A stretch of DNA of 64,000 nt from Escherichia coli (GTDB lineage Bacteria; Pseudomonadota; Gammaproteobacteria; Enterobacterales; Enterobacteriaceae): NCBI RefSeq assembly GCF_003334405.1, contig NZ_QOWM01000007.1, one strand, 5' to 3'. Of this stretch, positions 13,130-16,974 are shown piece by piece. Within the stretch, counting starts at the first letter, position 1. Every line of letters begins with the position of its first letter. Below the pieces are notes generated by a model. The model saw only the letters and a program-made list of their open reading frames with translations. It made no database searches and was not told where the DNA came from. A program made the position numbers and the translations under genes.

Positions 13130-14467
13130 ATGAGTCATCAACATACCACCCAGACTTCTGGTCAGGGGATGCTGGAACGCGTGTTTAAACTGCGCGAACA
13201 TGGCACGACGGCACGGACCGAAGTGATCGCCGGTTTTACCACCTTCCTGACGATGGTTTACATCGTTTTTGTTAACCCGCAAATTCTTGGCGTTGCTGGC
13301 ATGGATACCAGCGCCGTCTTCGTCACTACCTGTCTGATCGCTGCATTCGGCAGTATTATGATGGGACTGTTTGCTAACCTGCCAGTTGCACTGGCACCCG
13401 CTATGGGCCTGAATGCGTTCTTCGCTTTTGTCGTTGTACAGGCGATGGGCTTGCCGTGGCAGGTCGGGATGGGCGCAATCTTCTGGGGCGCGATAGGTCT
13501 GCTGTTACTGACGATTTTCCGCGTTCGCTACTGGATGATAGCCAACATTCCGGTGAGTCTGCGTGTGGGTATTACCAGCGGTATCGGTCTGTTCATTGGC
13601 ATGATGGGGCTGAAAAACGCAGGTGTGATTGTCGCTAACCCGGAAACGCTGGTGAGCATCGGTAATCTGACTTCTCACAGCGTACTTCTGGGTATCCTCG
13701 GCTTCTTCATCATTGCTATTCTGGCCTCGCGCAACATTCACGCAGCGGTGCTGGTTTCTATCGTGGTGACGACGCTGCTGGGCTGGATGCTGGGTGATGT
13801 GCACTACAATGGCATCGTTTCTGCGCCGCCGAGCGTAATGACAGTTGTGGGTCATGTAGATTTAGCCGGGTCGTTTAACCTCGGGCTGGCAGGGGTGATT
13901 TTCTCTTTCATGTTGGTCAACTTGTTTGACTCCTCCGGTACGCTGATTGGCGTGACCGATAAAGCAGGTCTGGCGGATGAGAAGGGGAAATTCCCGCGCA
14001 TGAAGCAGGCGCTGTATGTCGACAGTATCTCTTCCGTGACCGGTTCGTTTATCGGTACTTCTTCCGTTACGGCTTATATTGAGTCCTCTTCCGGCGTATC
14101 GGTTGGCGGTCGTACCGGTCTGACGGCAGTGGTTGTTGGTCTGCTGTTCCTGCTGGTTATCTTTCTGTCGCCGCTGGCGGGGATGGTGCCAGGCTACGCT
14201 GCAGCTGGTGCGCTGATTTACGTTGGCGTGCTGATGACTTCCAGTCTGGCACGCGTGAACTGGCAGGATCTTACTGAATCTGTTCCGGCGTTTATTACCG
14301 CCGTGATGATGCCGTTCAGCTTCTCGATTACCGAAGGTATCGCGCTGGGCTTTATCTCCTACTGCGTGATGAAAATCGGTACCGGACGTCTGCGTGATCT
14401 AAGCCCGTGCGTAATCATCGTTGCGCTGCTGTTTATCCTGAAGATTGTCTTTATCGACGCTCACTAA
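13130..14467 (+). CDS. adeP: Adenine permease AdeP (AzgA/NCS2-like)
   Basis: 445 aa polytopic transporter. Confidence 0.93.
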   Translation: MSHQHTTQTSGQGMLERVFKLREHGTTARTEVIAGFTTFLTMVYIVFVNPQILGVAGMDTSAVFVTTCLIAAFGSIMMGLFANLPVALAPAMGLNAFFAFVVVQAMGLPWQVGMGAIFWGAIGLLLLTIFRVRYWMIANIPVSLRVGITSGIGLFIGMMGLKNAGVIVANPETLVSIGNLTSHSVLLGILGFFIIAILASRNIHAAVLVSIVVTTLLGWMLGDVHYNGIVSAPPSVMTVVGHVDLAGSFNLGLAGVIFSFMLVNLFDSSGTLIGVTDKAGLADEKGKFPRMKQALYVDSISSVTGSFIGTSSVTAYIESSSGVSVGGRTGLTAVVVGLLFLLVIFLSPLAGMVPGYAAAGALIYVGVLMTSSLARVNWQDLTESVPAFITAVMMPFSFSITEGIALGFISYCVMKIGTGRLRDLSPCVIIVALLFILKIVFIDAH

Positions 14468-14483
14468 AATCGATAGCGCGTTA

Positions 14484-14518
14484 AAAACCCGCCATGCATG
14501 ATTGCTGGCGGGTTTTTT
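14484..14518. terminator. Bidirectional Rho-independent terminator (adeP / chrR)
   Basis: Stem aaaacccgcc / ggcgggtttt flanked by A-tract and T-tract. Confidence 0.75.
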
Positions 14519-14520
14519 AT

Positions 14521-15087
14521 TTAGATCTTAACTCGCTGAATAAACTCACCAAATGCGGTCAATTGCCCGGTCAGGTGGTCCAGCGTACCCTGATCAATCA
14601 CTTCTCCGGTTTGCGGATCAACTTTGTTCTGAATCACGCCGCCCATAAATTCCGGCTTGTTCATCACCATTGCATCGAGGAAAACCAGAATCTGGCGCAG
14701 GTGATACTGACAGCGCGCGCCGCCAATCACGCCCATTGAGCTGGTCTGAATCAATACCGGTTTACCGGCCAGCGGTTGATCCGGCAGGCGGGAAAGCCAG
14801 TCGATGGCATTTTTCAGCCCACCCGGTACCGAGTAGTTATATTCCGGCGTGACGATCACCACACCGTCAGCCTGACGGATCTGTTCCGCCAGAGCTTCAA
14901 CCGTTGCTGGAAAACCTTCTTCCTGCTGTACGTCAGCGTCATACAAGGGAATGTCGGCAATGGATGGTAACGCATTGACTTCCATGCTCGCCGGAGCAAT
15001 TTTCGGCAGGGTACGTGCAACCATGCCATTAAATGAGCCTTTGCGCAGGCTCCCCAGTAACGTAACCACCTGCAATTTTTCAGACAT
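14521..15087 (-). CDS. chrR: NAD(P)H-dependent FMN reductase / chromate reductase ChrR
   Basis: 188 aa flavodoxin-like reductase. Confidence 0.93.
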   Translation of the reverse strand: MSEKLQVVTLLGSLRKGSFNGMVARTLPKIAPASMEVNALPSIADIPLYDADVQQEEGFPATVEALAEQIRQADGVVIVTPEYNYSVPGGLKNAIDWLSRLPDQPLAGKPVLIQTSSMGVIGGARCQYHLRQILVFLDAMVMNKPEFMGGVIQNKVDPQTGEVIDQGTLDHLTGQLTAFGEFIQRVKI

Positions 15088-15108
15088 GATGACTCCTGTG
15101 GTTGTCTA

Positions 15109-15858
15109 TCAATTTGGCGAAAAAGCCTTCACGGTAGAGAGTTGGGCAAAACGCATCATCCGGCTGGTAGGATTGTTGGCGCGGCTGTGAATATCCGGCA
15201 GGCTTTTCCAGCCGTGTTTGCCATCTAACTCCCAGACACTGAGCTTTTCAATCGTGGGCGTGACCGCCACGGACCACACCAGCACGTCTTCCGCGTCGCA
15301 TAACGCTTCTACATGATTTACATGAGCACATTTCAGGCGTCCGGCAATGGGCAGCAGCTGCAGATCGCGCGGATCGTCATTCAAAACATCACCGGTTAGT
15401 TTTAGCACGCTTCGGCGCAGCGTGATGAGCTGCGCCCGCGCTTCGTTAGGATCGTTTTGTTTACTGATCCATAGCGATTCATTGCTGGAAAAGGTGTGGT
15501 TATCGGGCGCGTGTGGGCTATGAAACCCGCGCGTCGCACGCTGTAGTTCCATATCGAGGCCACATTCACCTTCGGTTGTTAACGCCACGCCAACCATATT
15601 CCCGGCATAGGAAATGGAAAACGAAGGCAAATTTTTATCACTGAAAACCGGTTTACCTTTCGGCAGGGTGACGATTTCCGGCAATTCGCCAATGCCATAC
15701 AGCATGAACATCAGTTCTGCGAGTAAACCTCTGGACGCCAGAAAACGGCTTTGACGATGAGGGGGAATGTTTCGGGCTTCTTGATGACACTGGGAGGGGA
15801 GACGAACAGAAATCAGATGTCCTTCCGTTAAAATCCCTCGGGCAAAGTGAGTCGCCAT
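15109..15858 (-). CDS. yieE: 4'-phosphopantetheinyl transferase-like protein YieE
   Basis: ATG at 15858 (MATHFARG...) has GGAG 6 nt upstream; alternative ATG at 15870; 21 bp upstream of chrR on same strand. Confidence 0.8.
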   Translation of the reverse strand: MATHFARGILTEGHLISVRLPSQCHQEARNIPPHRQSRFLASRGLLAELMFMLYGIGELPEIVTLPKGKPVFSDKNLPSFSISYAGNMVGVALTTEGECGLDMELQRATRGFHSPHAPDNHTFSSNESLWISKQNDPNEARAQLITLRRSVLKLTGDVLNDDPRDLQLLPIAGRLKCAHVNHVEALCDAEDVLVWSVAVTPTIEKLSVWELDGKHGWKSLPDIHSRANNPTSRMMRFAQLSTVKAFSPN

Positions 15859-16014
15859 TTTTCGCTCCATGCTTAATGGTCCATTATGAATACAAGAGTA
15901 ATCATTTACTGGAATGATGGACAGACTAAAGCGGCTAAAAGTTCGATTCAGACAAGCTTATTACAACTTTTTTACATTTTATTGTGAAATTGGGTCGCGT
16001 TTCATACGATTCGG

Positions 16015-16974
16015 TTATGCCATCGACGCGTAAAGGTTTTTAATGGTTTCCCGTAACCAGACGATCTTCGGATTATGGCTGTTCCGTTTATGCCACAGCA
16101 GGGTAAAAGGAACTTCCAGCTTTTTTTGCTGGCTTTCGTCAAACGGGAGAGGAAGAGCAACCAACGGCAGTTGATGGAGTTGATTGTAGTACTGACAGTA
16201 GCGCGGCGCGGTCGCCAGTAGCAGATTGTCGGGTTGCGCTGCCATAAACAGTGACTGCTCGAATTCCGGCAGGCTCATAGCAATCGTGCGTTCGCGTCCC
16301 AGCTCCTGTAACACATTGTCCAGCGCCCAGGTATCGCTCTGTTCCCAGCAAATGCTGATATGCGGATAACGTAAGAAGGTGTCCAGATTCCACGTTTGAT
16401 GCAGTGCCGGATGATCTTTGCGTAACCAGACGCAGGGCACATCACTAAACAGCACTTCATAATCAATGGCTAACGGTAGCGAGCTTAACAGCTCCCGCGA
16501 GCGAGGATGGCTTTCGCGACCGGAAAAACCGATATCCACTTCACCACGAGTAATGGCATCTAAGGAATCGTAATCCCAGTTACGTAATTTGATGGTCGCC
16601 TGCGGGTAACGTTGGTAGATCTGTTTCGACAGCGCATTAAGCATGATCATCATCAGCGGTGATTCCGCCGCCAGCTCAAACTTCAGGCCGCGCGGTGTCT
16701 GGTGGTGCGGTTTATCCAGCAGCAGGTTGCTCATTTGCATCCACTCCGCCAGATTTTGCTCCATGCTGACCATCAGCGGTGTGGGCGACAGACCCAGCGG
16801 TGAGTTCACAAAGAGCGGGTCGTCAAACCACGCTCTTAACTTTGCCAGCGACTTACTCACCGCCGAAGGTGTCACGTTTATCCGCTTCGCCGCTTTGGTT
16901 ACGCTGCGCTCCTGCATCAGCAGTTGCAGACAAAGCAGCAGATTGAGATCAAGCGTGGTGATGGATTTCTTCAT
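16015..16974 (-). CDS. yidZ: LysR-family transcriptional regulator YidZ
   Basis: ATG at 16974 ([13 protein letters not shown]...) gives 319 aa; N-terminal HTH; overlaps mdtL 3' end by 26 nt. Confidence 0.9.

Follow-up and report, generated by a model that had tools for sequence, protein, structure and literature searches.

The locus described here occupies positions 14,521 to 15,858 of the window, the whole 64,000-nt stretch of Escherichia coli K-12 DNA that was analyzed, and consists of the gene pair yieE-chrR with its flanking signals (Table 1). The interval 14400-16000 matches E. coli K-12 MG1655 with 100% identity, and for that strain RefSeq annotates the same two coding sequences with the same ends, and the region was found in 5422 of 5426 complete E. 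coli genomes. Gene coordinates given in a preliminary description of this DNA proved exact against the open reading frame list, the sequence and RefSeq. The genes are also, as it had stated, co-directional and 21 bp apart with no hairpin between them, an 81-nt stretch across the junction folding no better than shuffled sequences (z = +0.22). An Rfam scan of 14300-16200 gave no match.

Table 1. Genes and expression signals in and around the yieE-chrR locus (window coordinates).
Feature	Position	Strand	Remarks
adeP	13130-14467	+	RefSeq annotation
Bidirectional intrinsic terminator hairpin	14483..14518	both	Between convergent adeP (+) and chrR (-); RNA folding
chrR (yieF)	14521-15087	-	188 aa; FMN-dependent NAD(P)H quinone/chromate reductase; ORF list and RefSeq
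yieE-chrR spacer	15088..15108	-	21 nt; chrR Shine-Dalgarno AGGAG 15097-15093, 5 nt before chrR ATG
yieE	15109-15858	-	249 aa; predicted Sfp-type PPTase-fold protein, degenerate catalytic site
yieE Shine-Dalgarno GGAG	15865..15868	-	6 nt before ATG at 15858
yieE sigma70 promoter	15887..15900	-	-10 TACTCT 15900-15895, 7-nt spacer, TSS A at 15887
yidZ, mdtL, tnaB		all -	Further genes; RefSeq annotation

The yieE reading frame extends four codons farther without a stop, reaching an ATG at 15870 (MERK-MATHF...), which lacks a Shine-Dalgarno sequence and lies just 17 nt from the inferred transcription start; a 253-aa YieE is quoted in the older literature. We place the start at 15858 because the GGAG (15868-15865) precedes that codon and because homologues with MATHFAR-type N-termini begin at the same methionine. 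Farther upstream, yidZ and mdtL share 26 nt, between the annotated start of yidZ (16974) and the 3′ end of mdtL (16949), so that mdtL-yidZ may form a translationally coupled unit upstream of the yieE promoter.

The downstream gene requires little interpretation. ChrR matches Pfam FMN_red (PF03358, E 1.7e-43) and, across residues 1-188, the PDB entry 3SVL, "protein yieF" (E 6e-122), and RefSeq names it "class I chromate reductase YieF." It is thus the same protein as the solved FMN quinone/chromate reductase 3SVL, without difference, and belongs with the class I chromate reductases that include 3S2Y from Gluconacetobacter and 1RTT from Pseudomonas. Both genes, their annotation and the function of ChrR were already known; what is added here is an argument about the catalytic site of YieE and about its origin.

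Transcription of the yieE-chrR Pair

The hairpin at 14483-14518 folds with −22.6 kcal/mol on the minus strand (z −4.37) and −24.4 kcal/mol on the plus strand (z −4.75), none of 200 shuffled sequences did as well, and a U-run lies on either side. Given this strong fold on both strands and the flanking U-runs, the terminator serves both of the convergent genes chrR and adeP, and the bidirectional terminator proposed earlier for these gene ends is borne out by the folds. It is the sole terminator found for yieE-chrR, located 3′ of chrR. An automated promoter/terminator scan missed it and returned one promoter-like site, at 16005-15976; this site was rejected as the yieE promoter since it differs from the mapped one, and RNA folding and the literature settled both the promoter and the terminator.

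Work in vivo and in vitro has used the sigma70 promoter of yieE to model promoter-proximal pausing that depends on sigma70 (PMC7876045), and the promoter coordinates in Table 1 were inferred by placing the primers of that study (text and primer table) on the window sequence. The yieE transcript undergoes a sigma70-dependent, Gre-sensitive pause at about +17 (window 15871-15887), and downstream expression was 2.5-fold higher in the wild type than in a greAB mutant (PMC7876045), so that the yieE-chrR operon may be regulated at early elongation. Within yieE, neither the automated nor a lenient scan found a promoter-like site in the last 500 nt; the one site that the lenient scan did return scored 8/12 and lies some 500 nt ahead of chrR.

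Array and promoter-fusion/reporter studies handle yieE-chrR as one unit. The preliminary description had pointed to co-expression data as a check on the pairing, and both genes are indeed up after acid shock and in benzalkonium-tolerant cells. In one study, which treats the pair as a unit, overproduction of sigmaE induced only yieE of the two. The two genes share a strand, a short spacer without a terminator and one upstream promoter, as expected of a single operon, and the earlier pairing of the two genes, which independent promoters would have refuted, is supported by the 21-nt gap without a hairpin, the promoter upstream of yieE and the absence of promoter-like sites from the last 500 nt of that gene. 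From this layout, the promoter and the co-induction, yieE and chrR look like one transcription unit.

YieE Fold and Ancestry

RefSeq annotates YieE as a phosphopantetheinyl transferase (PPTase) family protein. A Pfam scan of the E. coli protein gave no match even at E ≤ 10, the ACPS model (PF01648) included, so the earlier remark that its motifs are not clear-cut was right; ACPS does match 31 of the 52 relatives in one alignment. As a single sequence YieE found only a chance match among PDB sequences (E 0.76), whereas the family profile reached Sfp (E 7e-15). Relatives are few, only 296 among 1.84 billion representative proteins, and fall into full-length YieE-like proteins (30-45% identity) and proteins of 215-257 aa with the classic PPTase motifs.

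An AlphaFold2 model of YieE built from an alignment of 65 relatives had a pLDDT of 88.9 and a pTM of 0.87. In a Foldseek search of the PDB its best 34 matches were all Sfp-type PPTases, led by Sfp of Bacillus subtilis (4MRT; E 2.9e-10, TM 0.63/0.69, 224 columns) and also including human AASDHPPT, mycobacterial PptT and PptAb, and PcpS. By this model YieE thus has the two-lobed, pseudo-dimeric alpha/beta fold of Sfp-type PPTases, and the PPTase-like nature assigned to it earlier is upheld at the level of fold. Sfp (4MRT, 1QR0), the archetypal group II PPTase, is the closest structural match at about 15% identity; its Asp107, Glu109 and Lys155 have equivalents in YieE, whereas Glu151, His90 and Trp147 are replaced by Arg, Tyr and Ile.

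A profile search against the Sfp and AcpS families, suggested earlier as a check, thus led to Sfp, and the sole NCBIfam match of YieE was AcpT (NF007676; E 6.6e-11, residues 32-137), at 42.2 bits against a cutoff of 174, so that YieE scores well below the equivalog level of at least 174 bits. By BLASTP, YieE shares 34% identity with K-12 AcpT over the N-terminal 88 aa (E 2e-12). An hhalign comparison of 24 YieE-clade proteins with 41 motif-bearing relatives gave a probability of 100% (E 1.2e-48, 207 columns), and AcpT was the best NCBIfam model for all 41 (98-125 bits). Two of these intact relatives were looked up in their genomes (P0172 and P0204, one of them from Rahnella), and both lie at the 3′ end of clusters with the order MMPL, DUF3261, ketosynthase, ApeP-like dehydratase, ketoreductase, ketosynthase and PPTase, which are aryl-polyene (APE) clusters. 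AcpT is described in PMC8253772, in a passage citing De Lay and Cronan (2006), as activating the aryl-polyene carrier proteins ApeE/F. With AcpT as the best model, relatives in APE clusters and the alignment to AcpT itself, YieE thus branched off from the AcpT lineage and has since diverged.

The resemblance to AcpT (YhhU) extends to the two-lobed fold, an RxxFLAGRxLLA helix, the G-x-D-x-E motif and the motif-3 Lys. The two differ at the SHS motif (SHS in AcpT, SYA in YieE) and in motif 3 (W..KE in AcpT, I..RR in YieE). YieE is also about 50 residues longer, through extra loops and a C-terminal extension, and it adjoins chrR, whereas the AcpT-like relatives adjoin a polyketide-like cluster.

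Degeneration of the YieE Catalytic Site

Residues were mapped by profile alignment to Sfp together with family alignments, which pair YieE Tyr84, Asp102, Glu104, Ile145, Arg148, Arg149 and Lys153 with Sfp His90, Asp107, Glu109, Trp147, Lys150, Glu151 and Lys155, respectively. Glu, the third residue of the Mg2+ triad, occurs at position 149 in none of 81 Enterobacteriaceae species, which instead have Gln (68), Arg (9), His (3) or Lys (1), with Arg in Escherichia and Gln in most genera. The histidine of the SHS motif, which in Sfp (His90) contacts the CoA phosphate in the Sfp-CoA structure, is Tyr84 in all 81 species, and none has Trp at position 145. Other parts of the site persist: 78 of the 81 species have Asp102, the first triad residue, within the sequence GLDME, 78 have Glu104, and all have Arg148 and the motif-3 Lys153. 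Among the 41 intact relatives, by comparison, no variation occurs at the Asp, Glu, Trp, second Glu or Lys, and at least 90% have the His, at a mean column identity of merely 28%.

In a survey covering 556 group II PPTases, the triad's first Asp and third Glu were never missing, and mutation of either one abolished the activity of SchPPT and Hppt. This agreed with previous studies of Sfp, Lys5 and AASDHPPT, in which such changes either eliminated activity or lowered it by a factor of more than 20 (PMC4103896). Lacking both the third-triad Glu and the SHS His, YieE is therefore probably not a canonical, working PPTase, judging from its residues, and no carrier protein is to be expected. The preliminary description had found a PPTase without a cognate carrier nearby puzzling, and this puzzle most likely falls away; a missing neighbor would not be unusual in any case, because AcpT itself is an orphan in K-12. 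Since 78-81 of the 81 species conserve Asp102, Glu104, Arg148 and Lys153, YieE may still have a metal/diphosphate site, and Arg or Gln at position 149 could conceivably support another chemistry.

These same conserved residues, together with the full PPTase fold, the RefSeq label and the fact that PPTases often act in trans, as orphan AcpT illustrates, are what can be said for YieE being a working PPTase with non-canonical residues whose carrier is encoded elsewhere in the genome. We consider this unlikely, since all 81 species lack the Glu that is invariant in the 556 surveyed enzymes and cannot be mutated without a loss or strong drop of activity, and in all of them the SHS His is replaced as well. 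Although yieE is present, acpS remains an essential gene and entD mutants are still deficient in enterobactin. Moreover, Asp102 or Glu104 is itself gone in four members (P0127, P0136, P0107 and P0131), as expected once catalysis is no longer selected, and the group II PPTases counted in K-12 are entD and acpT only (PMC4103896). Our literature search on yieE returned transcriptome tables and the promoter-pausing paper, with no functional study and no phosphopantetheinylation assay found.

Across the YieE clade the loss of motifs looks stepwise when sequences are compared. AcpT and the APE-cluster PPTases have SHS with W..(R/K)E in motif 3, the deep member P0150 has SYT with W..RE, P0160 has GYT with W..RR, Serratia (P0139) has AYA with W..RQ, and E. 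coli YieE has SYA with I..RR. Because P0150 retains the Glu and has a Pfam ACPS match, the clade may descend from an enzyme that was still active when it already adjoined chrR.

Selection on yieE and Linkage to chrR

An intact yieE open reading frame of 241-264 aa was present in all 80 species loci fetched, and in unsaturated comparisons within Escherichia dN/dS was 0.05-0.17 for yieE and 0.02-0.05 for chrR. YieE is the fastest-evolving protein of the block (61-80% identity, vs. 86-94% for ChrR and 91-97% for AdeP), and despite this it keeps more than 25 invariant positions. These values indicate that yieE is a working gene under purifying selection, and a pseudogene is ruled out by a dN/dS of about 0.1 and open reading frames that are intact everywhere. 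The fast evolution, beyond that of any neighbor, and the loss of catalytic residues would also suit a decaying relic without protein function, kept only because its transcription and translation drive chrR expression. Such a relic is very unlikely indeed: dN/dS lies far below neutral, the frames and the invariant positions are maintained, and yieE is kept even where chrR is absent.

In 77 of the 80 Enterobacteriaceae species chrR comes after yieE, the median orthologous spacer being 30 nt (76 species), and the same order is kept in Serratia (38% identity, 161-nt gap) and in a metagenomic relative at 30% identity (200-nt gap). The whole six-gene block mdtL-yidZ-yieE-chrR-adeP-yieH is syntenic, so the adjacency of yieE and chrR may merely be inherited vertically, and for this reason we rejected conserved adjacency as proof of functional coupling. 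In three loci (L039, L041 and L073, from Enterobacter sp. Bisph1, Enterobacter sp. ENT03 and the metagenome-assembled genome UBA3516) chrR is cleanly deleted and an intact yieE lies directly before adeP. In Kluyvera cryocrescens NBRC 102467 (L049) a 1-nt insertion early in chrR shifts its frame and yieE is intact, and P0128 has no chrR downstream.

This pattern bears on whether YieE is a physical partner of ChrR in regulation, assembly or substrate delivery, which would explain the persistence of the pair. The order kept from Escherichia to Serratia and to the distant metagenomic relative, the short spacers, the co-induction by acid shock and in benzalkonium-tolerant cells, and a read-through YieE-ChrR fusion in one Salmonella genome are all in keeping with such a partnership. 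We nevertheless judge it improbable, given the possibility of plain vertical inheritance, the loci in which an intact yieE outlasts a deleted or frameshifted chrR, the case of P0128, and the crystallization of ChrR alone (3SVL). An AlphaFold2 run on a YieE-(GGGGS)5-ChrR fusion also gave no confident arrangement (pLDDT 66.7, pTM 0.41), a result that counts at most weakly against a complex, in what was a crude test with 25 paired rows, a shallow and closely related alignment that lowered confidence within the domains as well.

Proposed Role of YieE

The reading that we favor, and hold with moderate confidence, is that of a conserved two-gene operon in which YieE is a PPTase-fold protein of the AcpT lineage that is no longer a transferase and has been retained for another role. 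Its observational basis comprises the fold, ancestry, residue states, purifying selection, gene order and promoter; from these, YieE would no longer transfer phosphopantetheine to a carrier protein, hence the lack of one encoded nearby. Under this model yieE-chrR would be a sigma70-transcribed operon inherited vertically across Enterobacterales, whose first gene has diverged from the AcpT lineage of Sfp-type PPTases serving aryl-polyene clusters. The protein has kept the whole two-lobed fold and part of the CoA/Mg2+ site (Asp102, Glu104, Arg148, Lys153 and a basic N-terminal helix) and lost the third Mg2+-ligand Glu (now Arg149 or Gln), the SHS His (Tyr84) and the motif-3 Trp (Ile145). It would then most plausibly act as a pseudoenzyme that binds a ligand (CoA or a 3′,5′-ADP-like compound) or a protein and is expressed with the stress reductase ChrR. 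Given the retained Asp, Glu, Arg and Lys, nucleotide or CoA binding would be its most plausible residual property.

More tentatively, and with somewhat less than even confidence, we propose that, within the PPTase superfamily, the YieE clade forms a conserved branch of pseudoenzymes. In an early ancestor of the Enterobacterales an AcpT-type enzyme would have become established upstream of chrR, lost first the His, then the Glu and then the Trp, and acquired a new function other than transfer, for example sensing CoA or nucleotides or binding a protein, in the quinone/oxidative-stress response. A literature search found no paper joining "phosphopantetheinyl transferase" with "pseudoenzyme."

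Databases label yieE, one of the K-12 genes without assigned function, as a PPTase family protein. For a fold without the catalytic glutamate, searches for ligands or partners would be more useful than hunts for carrier proteins, and neither metabolic models nor work on heterologous expression of natural products should list YieE as the fourth PPTase of E. coli. The practical impact is modest; the apparently stepwise loss of motifs across Enterobacterales would make a clear example of an enzyme fold repurposed.

Further Observations on Related Loci

The fusion noted above is a 397-aa protein of Salmonella enterica subsp. salamae (P0094), seen in one genome, in which YieE from Met51 reads through into full-length ChrR over a linker of 10 residues encoded by the spacer; the fusion could be genuine, the product of a stop loss or a frameshift, or else an artifact of sequencing or annotation. 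A locus labeled "Chryseobacterium sp. 18061" (L034, CACSKA010000004.1) has the Enterobacteriaceae-type order yieE-chrR-adeP-yieH, with ChrR and AdeP 89 and 91% identical to those of E. coli, respectively, and this assembly is probably mislabeled or contaminated. In this locus and in one other (L029), mdtL and yidZ are present only as fragments. Three Serratia loci (L085-L087) and the relative at 30% identity (L088) share a conserved gene of 350-360 aa after chrR on the same strand (7532-8584 in L085, 3122-4204 in L088), which has no Pfam match and is absent from the E. coli locus.
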